A DNA stretch of 64,000 bases, taken from contig CABROF010000002.1 of NCBI GenBank assembly GCA_902472555.1, positions 28,404 through 92,403 of the forward strand. Reading direction: 5' to 3'. Shown in pieces: positions 53,031 to 56,225 of the stretch; position 1 is the first letter of the stretch, and every line of letters starts with the position of its first letter. The notes below the pieces were generated by a model. The model worked only from the letters and a program-made list of their open reading frames with translations, was not told the DNA's origin and did no database searches. This DNA is from an uncultured Oscillospiraceae bacterium. GTDB lineage: Bacteria > Bacillota > Clostridia > UBA1212 > UBA1255. The translations under genes were made by a program, and so were the position numbers.

Positions 53031-53096
53031 ACAGCAGCGCCTCCCGAAGCAATCTCAATGTAAAGAACTTCAAATTAGAATTTTACTATAGAATTT

Positions 53097-53128
53097 TTTA
53101 TTTGTAAAGCATGGCGCCATTGCACGGC
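53097..53128 (+). repeat. 32-bp perfect direct repeat, left copy (tttatttgtaaagcatggcgccattgcacggc)
   Basis: Identical 32-mer recurs at 56194..56225; contains the 10-bp palindrome ATGGCGCCAT. Confidence 0.9.
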
Positions 53129-53262
53129 CAAGGCTTACGCATGAATGTGTTTCGCAGCCAAAATTCATACATCAAATAAAAAAACTACAAATTCATAATT
53201 CGCGTTCATAATTCGCGCCAAATGTTTTTCGGGATTTGTACCGATTGCATACCGCTTCTTTT

Positions 53263-53502
53263 TCAGGCCATGGCGAACACTCTTTGGATCGTATCATGGG
53301 AGGGAATCCCATTGGGAAGTTCCAGATAATTCCTTAGAAACTTCTCGTGTTCTCTTCCGAACACCTCCATTTCCACCCAGTCATCTGCATCTGCGCGCGT
53401 TGCGAAAAAGACAAGCATAATAATATCTATCATCTTATGCAGTACCTTCTTCTCCTGCCAGATATCCGTCACTGTACTTACATACTCCAAAAGAGTTTTC
53501 AT
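53263..53502 (-). pseudogene. Truncated ISAs1-family transposase (N-terminal DDE_Tnp_1-associated fragment only, 79 aa)
   Basis: MKTLLEYVSTVTD...IIMLVFFATRADADDW..ME.FG matches the ISAs1/H-repeat transposase N-terminus. The ORF terminates early and no catalytic DDE domain follows. Confidence 0.6.
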
Positions 53503-53663
53503 AACAATCCATCCTTTTTCCTTTGATTATACCAAAAAGATGAAATGTTCATAATTTATTATTTCATGCGTTCGTCGTGGTCATGCAATCGGCATCATAT
53601 TCACATTTTGTGCATTATGAGGGACTCCTGCATGAAGAGCAACAGTCCCTCGAATCCATACCT

Positions 53664-54533
53664 TTACGCTTTTTTCTTACGCAAATATATTCCGCCAAAC
53701 ACAAGACCGACTGCCAGCAGAACAATGCAGAGCGAAATGCCGCCCCATAGCAAATACTTGTTTGTATTGTCCGACGCTGTAACAGCATTGTCGTTGCCAA
53801 TCGGAATTTTTGCATTTCGGTTAAAAGTATTTGCGTTAATATCGTATGGTGATAAATCCCAAACACCACCGATATTGATTCCTCCCGGGGGGGTATCAGC
53901 GTCCATTTTACCGTATACGGCTTTCATCAATTCGAAAAAATCCGCCGCAGGAAACAAATACTCTTTTCCGCCAGTCAAGTAATACTTATAATAAACATAA
54001 TCACCTTTATTCGTTTCATAGTACAGTGCCGTACCTTGGTGGTTGGATTCACCCCAAAGATAATAAACATTTTTGACCGTAATATCTGACGATATTTTAT
54101 CGAGACCTTTTTGATTTAAAAATGCAGATAGCGTCTCTGCGTCACAGATGTATTGTTCGTCATTCATCTTTACAGATTTCATATCATCTGTAATTGATTG
54201 AACTGATAAAACATTTTTGTTCGATACAATCGCATATAATGTCTGAAGGACATGCTTACTTTTCATGATCTCATCGATGCTGCCATATTCACTAAAAGCA
54301 TACACTATAGGTATGTTATATATTTTTACAACATTATTAGAGCCCTCAGTATCAAGAATATTTAATATTTCCTTGCTTACATACTTCGAACTGTATTCAT
54401 TCATTCCAGCAGAATTTTCCGTAATTTTGCTGATCAACTCTTCTTTTTTCATAGTTTCCTCCGCATGAATCGTTAGTGGCATGACTGCAATTATAGTCAA
54501 GAGCAAGCATAATATTACCATAATTCTTTTCAT
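53664..54533 (-). CDS. Secreted, C-terminally membrane-anchored protein of unknown function (paralog A)
   Basis: Signal peptide MKRIMVILCLLLTIIAVMPLTIHA; C-terminal TM plus KKKA tail. AT-rich, with AAAGGAG RBS. Confidence 0.6.
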   Translation of the reverse strand: MKRIMVILCLLLTIIAVMPLTIHAEETMKKEELISKITENSAGMNEYSSKYVSKEILNILDTEGSNNVVKIYNIPIVYAFSEYGSIDEIMKSKHVLQTLYAIVSNKNVLSVQSITDDMKSVKMNDEQYICDAETLSAFLNQKGLDKISSDITVKNVYYLWGESNHQGTALYYETNKGDYVYYKYYLTGGKEYLFPAADFFELMKAVYGKMDADTPPGGINIGGVWDLSPYDINANTFNRNAKIPIGNDNAVTASDNTNKYLLWGGISLCIVLLAVGLVFGGIYLRKKKA

Positions 54534-54705
54534 TATATAGACACTCCTTTACCAAAATAAATTTTTATATTTATCCTGTGTTTAATTAAAATTCAATTTC
54601 AAACAGGAGTAAGGGTATTACCGGAATAGCTTGTATTCACCACTACAAAACTTCCCATATACCGGTATCTGGTTGTTCACCATTCAAAGCATTCAGTCCA
54701 TACCT

Positions 54706-55524
54706 TTACGCTTTTTTCTTACGCAAATATATTCCGCCAAACACAAGACCGACTGCCAGCAGAACAATGCAGAGCGAAATGCCGCCCCATAGCAAATACT
54801 TGTTTGTATTGCCCGACGCTGTAACACTGTTATTGTCGTTGCCAGTCGGAATCTTTACATTCAAGTTAAAGGTGCTTGCGTTAATATCGTATTTTGATAA
54901 ATCCCAAACCCCGTTGATAGCTACCCCACCATATGAATCAGCATATTTTTTTCTTTCATCAGAGATTGCTTTTTGATACATGCAGAACTCTTCTATCGGA
55001 AACAGGTATTCCCCTTCACCGAGTTCATAGTAATTATAATAAACGTAGTCACCTTTGTTTGTTTCATAATAAATCGCCGTACCCATATGATTTGTTTCGC
55101 CTGAAAGGTAGTAAGTATTATAAATTACTATATCTGATGAGACCTTTTCTATTATTTTGTCATTTTGAAAAGCATTCAATGCCTTTTGATTGCTGCTATA
55201 TACTTCAAATTCGTGACATTCACCATCATAAATTGCCTTATATTCGAATAAGCCGTTTGAAGATTTCACAGCATAATAAATCTGTAATGCTTCATTGCCT
55301 GCCAATACCTCACTGATGTTGCTATATTCGGTAAAAGCAAAGCGTAATGGAATATTATAAATTCTTATAACCTCCTCATCTTCTTGCAAGGCAAGCTGTT
55401 TTTTTATTTCCTCACTGATCGTTGTTGAATCTTCTTTTTTCATATTGTCCTCCGCATAAATTGTAAGTGTCATACACGAGATAACAAGTAAGGTTACTGC
55501 TAATAATATAATTACTTTTTTCAT
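54706..55524 (-). CDS. Secreted, C-terminally membrane-anchored protein of unknown function (paralog B)
   Basis: MKKVIILLAVTLLVISCMTLTIYA signal; shares the core YYETNKGDYVYY and an identical C-terminal anchor with paralog A. TATAAT plus AAAGGAG upstream. Confidence 0.6.
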   Translation of the reverse strand: MKKVIILLAVTLLVISCMTLTIYAEDNMKKEDSTTISEEIKKQLALQEDEEVIRIYNIPLRFAFTEYSNISEVLAGNEALQIYYAVKSSNGLFEYKAIYDGECHEFEVYSSNQKALNAFQNDKIIEKVSSDIVIYNTYYLSGETNHMGTAIYYETNKGDYVYYNYYELGEGEYLFPIEEFCMYQKAISDERKKYADSYGGVAINGVWDLSKYDINASTFNLNVKIPTGNDNNSVTASGNTNKYLLWGGISLCIVLLAVGLVFGGIYLRKKKA

Positions 55525-55788
55525 AATAAACACTCCTTTATTAAATTATATCACGAAAATTCCCGCGGTATATATTATATTGTATGTCTAATTCCCGATT
55601 TGCGGAGTATTCTCCATTTTTCCATGCTTTAACAAGATTTGTAATGTTAAACGTATTATCTGAAACGGTAATAGATGTATAGATCGGTTGAGATTTTCCA
55701 TTGTTTACATTTTAGAAATCAGAATCCATAGCCTTGTTGTGAACAGTGTAAAATTCGCCGCAACAGGCAAGTGAAATAAACCATTGTA

Positions 55789-55830
55789 AAAAGCGCAAAA
55801 ACCGACTTACACAGCGGCTTTTGCGCTTTT
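55789..55830. terminator. Bidirectional terminator-like hairpin (aaaagcgcaaaa...ttttgcgctttttt)
   Basis: 9-bp stem flanked by an A-run and a T-run, in the AT-rich gene-less part of the islet. Confidence 0.45.
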
Positions 55831-56193
55831 TTAAAGGATTAATAAATGATACCTTTCACATGGTATGAAAAGCAAATTACTCAATTGCGGATCGCCGCTG
55901 TAATATGATATACTGTCAATTATAACCATATTTTTGGGCCCCTTGTAACACTGATTGGAATAAAACTCCATTTTTATTATATAAATATCATAAATAAATC
56001 GAACTGTCAACAGTTCATACAAAAACAAATAAATACTTACTCTACAAGACCCGTCTTTTGTATTTAGCACCATATTCTTTAAGAAAATAAAGAAGTCCAT
56101 AATCCTTTGAACACCCTGAAAACGGGCGTTTTTTATTTTAAAGAAAACACTTGTAAAAAATGATTTTTCGCAGTATGGATACAAAAGTCAGGG

Positions 56194-56225
56194 TTTATTT
56201 GTAAAGCATGGCGCCATTGCACGGC
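56194..56225 (+). repeat. 32-bp perfect direct repeat, right copy
   Basis: Identical to 53097..53128. Confidence 0.9.

Follow-up and report, generated by a model that had tools for sequence, protein, structure and literature searches.

Predicted surface-protein paralogs with identical 3′ ends on a strain-variable islet of an uncultured Oscillospiraceae bacterium

A tandem gene pair and its shared 3′ block

Genes A and B are tandem paralogs on the minus strand of a 64,000-nt stretch of DNA from an uncultured Oscillospiraceae bacterium (assembly GCA_902472555.1, contig CABROF010000002.1, positions 28,404 to 92,403), the whole of which is referred to as the window. They code for proteins of 289 and 272 amino acids (aa) that are 55% identical overall and have the same architecture. 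In A this consists of a Sec signal peptide (MKRIMVILCLLLTIIAVMPLTIHA|EE), an ectodomain of ~200 aa, a WDLSPYD module, a short linker, a C-terminal transmembrane (TM) helix, and a KKKA tail. From the combination of signal peptide and C-terminal TM helix, both products are predicted to be surface-anchored proteins of type-I topology. A ribosome-binding site (RBS), AAGGAG, is found 10 nt upstream of A and 8 nt upstream of the ATG of B at 55524, and a protein identical to that of gene A is encoded on 12 contigs. The genes and the regions of homology between them are the following.

53664..54533, minus strand: gene A, 289 aa (list of open reading frames, ORFs; family hidden Markov model, E=3.5e-107; AF2 models)
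54706..55524, minus strand: gene B, 272 aa, paralog of A (ORF list; same architecture)
53655..53784, minus strand: 3′ homology block, A copy (repeat search, alignment, shuffle test)
54697..54826, minus strand: 3′ homology block, B copy (repeat search, alignment)
53787..53874, minus strand: older homology zone in A, the WDLSPYDINA..TFN..KIP.GNDN module (repeat family D2, 83% to 54832-54919)
54832..54919, minus strand: older homology zone, B copy (repeat family D2)
54439..54482, minus strand: 5′ homology block in A, covering the end of the signal peptide and the start of the mature protein (86% to 55430-55473 in B; repeats D4 and D7)

A repeat search of the window finds a 130-nt direct repeat (53655-53784 and 54697-54826) at 99% identity with a single mismatch, the two copies being spaced by 1042 nt from start to start. 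In the base-by-base alignment, positions 53655-53769 and 54697-54811 form an unbroken identity of 115 nt, which confirms the identical 3′ ends of ~115 bp reported in the original prediction and places its coordinates right within 1 nt. The run contains the final 34 codons (NTNKYLLWGGISLCIVLLAVGLVFGGIYLRKKKA), the TAA stop, and 9 nt past both stops, where the identity between the genes ends sharply. The mismatch (A at 53770, G at 54812, in gene orientation) gives Asp in A and Gly in B and is followed by 14 further identical nucleotides. In P0003, a related gene ending in KKKASR*, the 9 nucleotides past the stop are coding, and the end of the block therefore corresponds to the end of the ancestral ORF. 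A weak terminator-like hairpin pattern lies within the block.

The uniform divergence that would speak against a shared 3′ module is not what the alignment gives. Identity is 83% in the 88 nt immediately 5′ of the block and 44-76% per 45-nt window in the remaining gene sequence, where the patchy ectodomain motifs quoted in the original prediction are present. At the other end of the genes, the RBS regions (54537-54562 in A, 55526-55551 in B) are 81% identical. Homology spans from ~25 nt upstream of the ATG to 9 nt after the stop, and the flanking intergenic DNA is unrelated. Among 20,000 shuffles of the alignment columns, the longest identical run averaged 15 nt and never exceeded 49 nt, compared with the observed 115, for which the analytic estimate is ~1e-21. 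A chance origin of the block is excluded.

Divergence, strain variants, and the origin of the block

Substitution rates between A and B, computed per segment by the method of Nei and Gojobori, differ between parts of the genes. For the signal peptide and ectodomain, synonymous divergence (dS) ranges from 1.2 to saturated, the proportion of differing synonymous sites (pS) being 0.6-0.98 in the ectodomain. It is 0.76 in the WDLSPYD module and 0.03 over codons 250-289 (the last 40 codons, boundary mismatches included), and the 115-nt tract has zero synonymous differences and zero differences of any kind. The ratio of nonsynonymous to synonymous divergence (dN/dS) is 0.25-0.35 in every segment of the signal peptide and ectodomain that allows the calculation. 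The DIVERSIFYING (diversifying) selection on the exposed domain suggested by the original prediction is not borne out by these ratios, a weak test with dS saturated, nor by the ectodomain core (YYLxGE...GxAIYYxTNxGDYVYY...EYLFP), which is the most conserved part of the family, the anchor being the most variable.

P0003, which is found on L002 in another genome and another context, provides a third term of comparison. Its ectodomain is 83-86% identical in nucleotides to that of B, and the ectodomain of A is 56-60% identical to either. Because the ectodomain of B is far nearer to P0003 than to A, the A/B split is older than the B/P0003 split, and the recent duplication offered as an option in the original prediction does not fit. 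The signal peptides group otherwise: A is 81% identical to P0003 and B 58-61%, and the stretch with the 5′ untranslated region (UTR) and signal peptide of A (54439-54574) is 84.7% identical to P0003. The 3′ block is the same in A and B, and P0003 matches it at 86-87% identity (13-14% diverged). A comparison of 87 family members leads to the same picture, as the ectodomain of A is about equally far (43-45%) from those of B, P0003, and several others, the closest relative of its WDLSPYD module is that of B, and the TM modules of A, B, and P0003 share 78-95% identity among themselves and at most 40% with any other. Hence the modules are incongruent: the ectodomain pairs B with P0003, and the C-terminal module unites A, B, and P0003 to the exclusion of the 84 other members.

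At least four assemblies made from other samples carry the two-gene arrangement with its block on one contig: L001/L020 (GCA_964261755.1), L021/L043 (ERZ27247033, k=141), L022/L045 (ERZ28623472), and L044 (ERZ28564864). The borders of the identical tract vary among strains. The B allele of L021/L043 has changes at 54797 and 54800, two substitutions 3 nt apart that replace KY with RF and shorten the tract to 100 nt. The resulting NTNRF in place of NTNKY also occurs in the proteins P0176 and P0179, and the F is common to P0003; the B gene of the window thus appears to have taken its KY from A. Conversely, the A allele of P0173/L042 carries the B-type Gly codon at 53770, by which the identity grows to at least 130 nt. 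The identical tract therefore measures 100, 115, or at least 130 nt depending on the strain and, since its borders are polymorphic in both genes, transfer in both directions is implied. In L001/L020, gene B has an insertion of AA in an A-run (~55212) whose frameshift splits it into ORFs of 116 and 157 aa; this copy is a pseudogene unless the insertion is a sequencing error in the homopolymer. In the JGI metagenomes, an exact 50-mer taken from the block has 0 matches.

The lack of synonymous differences in a tract surrounded by sequence with dS of 1.2 to saturation, the incongruence of the modules, and the polymorphic borders together support gene conversion, and uphold the concerted evolution of the anchor module put forward in the original prediction. 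Quite probably, A and B are old tandem paralogs whose 3′ ends have been homogenised by repeated gene conversion. Short, non-reciprocal homologous recombination between the direct copies, occurring repeatedly, would have produced the identical ends, and the lower identity of the 88-nt zone (83%) and of the block in the 5′ UTR and signal peptide shows that there were earlier exchanges as well. The genes would then be mosaics, in which the ends are shared modules and the central ectodomain a distinct cassette, and the conserved ends would be the homology used by recombination rather than sequences selected for sameness. Some points weigh against this explanation. With two paralogs only, the donor for the bulk of the tract is not assignable; the single-site border difference at 53770 could be a recurrent point mutation; and a Campbell-type single crossover inserting one gene through the block would leave the same footprint.

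Such a crossover is the most substantial of the rivals. One of the genes would have arrived on a small circular or linear DNA and recombined once within the 3′ block of the resident, an event that would itself yield two direct copies of the block 1042 nt apart. This would fit with a homology confined between ~25 nt 5′ of the ATG and 9 nt past the stop and flanked by unrelated intergenic DNA, with the shuffling of modules between genomes in this family (as in the mosaic P0003), and with the mobile-looking islet and its insertion sequence (IS) stub described below. However, unrelated intergenic DNA is equally expected of old paralogs with saturated dS, and the incoming block must already have been ~100% identical to that of the resident. 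The graded zone of 83% beside the block is left unexplained, and the strain differences in tract length in both genes still call for later conversion. A Campbell-type crossover is possible as the founding event; as the full account of the block we consider it rather improbable.

The remaining rivals are much less probable. Had the pair arisen by a recent tandem duplication, with diversifying selection then driving the ectodomains apart very fast and leaving the anchor as it was, the tandem layout and the identical 3′ end would be expected, but the synonymous sites of the ectodomain are saturated (with dN/dS ~0.3), and the ectodomain of B is much nearer to P0003 than to A, which is itself no nearer to B than to many members; this scenario is very improbable. 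A rival without recombination, in which purifying selection preserves the anchor or some overlapping signal in the nucleic acid, might be invoked because the block encodes the TM helix and contains the weak hairpin pattern. Yet it does not account for the absence of synonymous differences or for the 9 identical non-coding nucleotides, P0003 differs by 13-14% in this block, no part of the family is less conserved than the TM module (at most 40% aa identity), and Rfam gives no match, so that we give it next to no credence. Together, the old A/B split and an anchor that is not conserved in the family effectively rule out both recent duplication and selection on the anchor, and leave homologous recombination. 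A collapsed or chimeric repeat produced by the assembly is equally hard to credit. Several short-read contigs (L042, L046, L047, L048, L050) do break inside the block copy of B, as is expected of a true repeat in an assembly graph, but both genes lie on one contig in at least four further assemblies, made from different samples with different assemblers, the k-mer of the k=141 assemblies exceeds the 130-nt repeat, and the border alleles differ in a gene-specific manner. The assembly artefact that the original prediction had named as a possible refutation is thereby set aside.

Recombination of this kind is textbook. The closest described phenomenon is that of the immunity paralogs of type VII secretion systems (T7SS), esaG in Staphylococcus aureus and tipC in Streptococcus, which lie in tandem and recombine via 5′ and 3′ homology blocks (Garrett et al. 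2022, Microb Genom, PMC9484751). As here, these are tandem, non-identical paralogs of Firmicutes with similar ends and a variable centre, and TipC is membrane-bound and faces outward (PMC9484751). The differences are that A and B have no kinship in sequence or fold to EsaG (DUF600) or TipC and no T7SS/LXG toxin nearby, that there are two copies rather than arrays of 5-15, that the block encodes a C-terminal TM anchor, and that an immunity role is hypothetical here. A second parallel is provided by opa/pil of Neisseria and vls of Borrelia, where concerted evolution by gene conversion from many silent cassettes leads to antigenic variation of the variable part. Like A/B, these systems have mosaic genes with shared end modules, made by short non-reciprocal transfers from one paralog to another; what is transferred here, unlike there, is the invariant anchor, between two genes that both look expressed. 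The interest of the locus is that it offers a clean, population-resolved example, with tracts of 100, 115, and 130 nt, two-way transfer, and both empty and filled sites of the islet that carries it. The uncharacterised protein family is a modest to moderate lead.

The AT-rich islet

Genes A and B are located on an islet of 3.1 kb, with a GC content of 35.7% compared with 49.1% for the remaining window. Its features are listed here.

53129..56193, unstranded: AT-rich islet with A, B, a transposase stub, and ~630 nt of non-coding DNA (composition, empty and filled sites)
53097..53128, unstranded: 32-nt direct repeat TTTATTTGTAAAGCATGGCGCCATTGCACGGC, left copy (repeat D6, perfect)
56194..56225, unstranded: 32-nt direct repeat, right copy (repeat D6, perfect)
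53263..53502, minus strand: ISAs1-type transposase stub, N-terminal 79 aa (Pfam PF13808 DDE_Tnp_1_assoc, E=1.6e-21)

The islet is a presence/absence polymorphism within the species. Empty sites were found in L019, L023, and L028, which belong to the same species in other samples and have flanks that are ~99% identical. There, a single copy of the 32-mer with an extra CACGG unit is present and the fumarase and MGMT-like genes directly adjoin. The site is filled in L020, L021, L022, and L044. The 32-nt repeat that bounds the islet is taken to be a target duplication. A repeat of 32 nt is too long for the usual target duplication of an IS.

The transposase stub does not continue into a DDE_Tnp_1 catalytic domain in any frame and is not an intact element of the ISAs1 family; in L001/L020 it has suffered a further deletion of 80 nt (window positions 53474-53553). 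No ORF for a tyrosine or serine recombinase occurs within 53129-56193 according to the ORF list and Pfam. Nor is there a T7SS/LXG toxin locus nearby, as the islet contains A, B, and the stub, and is flanked by fumarase and the MGMT-like gene. Outside the family genes the islet has no nucleotide similarity to other loci, and Rfam has no match on it, the 3′ block included. An ORF of 117 aa with a TTG start (ORF117, 55831-56184, minus strand) has no homolog in any library, was not called in the annotations of the other assemblies, and is probably non-coding.

Between runs of A and T at 55776-55843 there is a strong inverted repeat (AAAAAGCGCAAAAACCG / CGGCTTTTGCGCTTTTTT) that resembles a bidirectional intrinsic terminator. 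It is located 250 nt upstream of B and parts this gene from the right end of the islet. Upstream of the fumarase operon, the best promoter-like site (53080-53108, minus strand, 10/12 matches) has its -35-like TTTACA inside the 32-nt repeat. As this element is within the repeat, insertion has duplicated it at the right end of the islet, where it points into the islet. The promoter scan was no better than that of shuffles.

The protein family and its peptidase neighbours

The family of A and B, for which Pfam has no model, comprises 512 cluster representatives from gut and rumen Clostridia. Searches of Pfam, NCBIfam, and PHROGs with A, B, and ORF117 returned insignificant matches only (ETRAMP, PFE-CTERM, and similar), all of them on the TM helix or signal peptide. 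Pfam on 87 aligned members found no recurring family, and a profile of the 87 members used against the PDB sequences found nothing but noise on the TM segment. The AF2 model of the ectodomain has a predicted local distance difference test score (pLDDT) of 85 and a predicted template-modelling score (pTM) of 0.85. With the full-length and ectodomain models, Foldseek gave a best E of 0.09 against the PDB (TM-score at most 0.33); the match to the EsaD-EsaG complex (8guo_B) has E=0.4 and TM-scores of 0.17-0.33. Against BFVD the best E was 0.076. The ectodomain may be a fold without a solved relative. The original prediction had pointed to prophages and conjugative elements as places to look for homologs. 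A tblastn search of 50,697 phage and 72,556 plasmid records, an IMG/VR scan, and PHROGs found none there; one pair, that of P0022, adjoins conjugation genes.

In 10 independent relatives (L004, L006, L009, L015, L016, L018, P0013, P0014, P0018, and P0022), the family gene lies 7-40 nt downstream of, or overlaps, the gene of a secreted lectin-peptidase. The upstream partner is a large secreted protein with CBM96 and/or RicinB lectin domains and a C-terminal papain-like peptidase (Peptidase_C39_2/C70). The peptidase domain has invariant Q..WCW, GHA, and D residues and looks catalytically competent. No anchor of their own was found among the domains detected in these partners, and a literature search on the lectin-peptidase architecture found no description of the pair. 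About half of the relatives examined (~8 other groups, with A/B and P0003 among them) have no peptidase neighbour. The two-gene module of lectin-peptidase and family member was also seen in L029-L033, L035/36, and L040/41. Genes for an extracytoplasmic function (ECF) sigma factor and a DUF4367 anti-sigma factor are often close to the module (L010, L016, L032, L034, L040), and another peptidase/family pair is near a giant RHS-repeat protein.

The anchors vary more than the ectodomain. In longer relatives (P0026, P0027, P0058, P0062, P0067, P0079, P0094, P0105, and L010:7401-10001), a type I dockerin, a domain of attachment to cellulosomes or amylosomes, stands in place of the TM anchor, and in P0150 the ectodomain precedes BspA-type leucine-rich repeats (LRRs). 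A subgroup close to A (P0004-P0008, L005, L011, and L034; 42% identity in the ectodomain) has an N-terminal signal-anchor instead and ends right after PDTPPGG, with neither the WDLSPYD module nor a C-terminal TM helix; the copy in L011 is split into two ORFs. Judged by these arrangements, the ectodomain appears to be a self-contained, surface-displayed module with exchangeable anchors. The dockerin-borne modules of Ruminococcus cellulosomes are related in this respect, as the long relatives share the ectodomain and have a type I dockerin, whereas A and B have a TM helix and no match to Dockerin_1 in Pfam.

No LPXTG precedes the TM helix of A or B, where the segment reads ...VTASDNTNKYLLWGG, and the match to an NCBIfam LPXTG subfamily is insignificant (E=0.024-0.26, below the cutoff) and falls on the signal peptide. 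An LPXTG or GlyGly-CTERM sorting signal was rejected, LPXTG being absent and WGG at the start of the TM helix being found only in A, B, P0003, and P0011. Also rejected was a role of the family protein as a substrate cut before WDLSPYD at an AvrRpt2-like FGxW or double-glycine site, because across the family the G that stands two positions ahead of the W is not conserved.

We tentatively propose that the ectodomain is the cognate binding partner of the secreted RicinB/CBM96 and C39_2/C70-like peptidases, most likely as an inhibitor or an immunity-type protector. With no peptidase on their islet, A and B would be orphans on this view. Of the surface or immunity-like character advanced in the original prediction, the first part agrees with the predicted topology, and the second was a reasonable guess in view of the 10 relatives downstream of lectin-peptidases. 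Several observations weigh against such a function. About half of the relatives examined, A, B, and P0003 among them, have no peptidase neighbour, and the domain is also fused to dockerins and BspA-type LRRs, which fits a general surface binding module equally well. In Pfam, NCBIfam, PDB, and Foldseek searches it shows no sequence or fold similarity to known inhibitor or immunity families. Moreover, all the peptidase partners share one conserved catalytic domain, unlike classical polymorphic toxins.

As the main alternative, the ectodomain might be a general surface binding or adaptor module, such as an adhesin or a dock by which the lectin-peptidase or another ligand is retained at the cell surface or cellulosome. 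This role would be in line with the type I dockerins fused to the domain in many long relatives, the BspA-type LRRs fused to it in one, the relatives lacking a peptidase neighbour, and the partner peptidases with no anchor of their own among the detected domains. On the other hand, a protective function more readily accounts for orphan copies on small mobile islets, and a gene set so tightly behind that of a cysteine peptidase, often overlapping it, is reminiscent of protease-inhibitor and toxin-immunity operons; we hold an adaptor function to be possible but doubtful. A wider form of the protective role is more speculative and, on balance, unlikely. Under it, the family members, whether TM-anchored or dockerin-displayed, would represent a novel class of exported inhibitors or immunity proteins directed against the secreted, lectin-targeted papain-fold peptidases of gut and rumen Clostridia, which are possibly bacteriolysins. 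The islet would then be a Gram-positive orphan immunity cassette, with the gene ends serving as handles by which ectodomain specificities are swapped between strains.

Operons of a cysteine protease and an adjacent inhibitor are known from staphopain-staphostatin, SpeB-Spi, and the Bacteroides C10 protease-Bfi. The likeness is one of functional analogy, in that a papain-fold protease gene is directly followed by a small partner gene. The folds of staphostatins and Spi are known (lipocalin-like and propeptide-like), and these inhibitors are cytoplasmic, whereas the partner here is predicted to be exported and membrane-anchored, and its confident AF2 model matches no such fold in Foldseek. Among acquired interbacterial defence islets, the AID systems of Bacteroidales are an example. 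The orphan immunity and defence islets of gut bacteria (e.g. PMC12247911) are a further functional analogy. Such islets are small, strain-variable, and acquired, their genes have relatives beside a secreted antagonistic enzyme, and they evolve fast by recombination. The present case differs in that the toxin nature of the partner is putative, the islet has no recombinase, and the setting is one of Gram-positive-type Clostridia with no type VI secretion system (T6SS).

The family is the more useful lead of this locus, given the absence of a Pfam model and of a solved structural match and the repeated coupling to lectin-cysteine peptidases. If the module proved to be one of antagonism and immunity, or of protease and inhibitor, it would give Oscillospiraceae and Ruminococcus a new system, interbacterial or surface-protective, and would explain the orphan copies on small strain-variable islets. 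To our knowledge, systems of this type are poorly known in these groups.

The neighbourhood of P0003 contains another pair of similar genes. P0003 lies between two lipoprotein genes (L002:43-774 and L002:2624-3352), whose products of 243 and 242 aa are 60% identical, have no Pfam match, and have near-identical N- and C-termini. Beside them are an IS3-like stub and genes for Fic, HsdM, and transglutaminase-core proteins. These lipoproteins may be a second case of end-conserved paralogs in a variable region.

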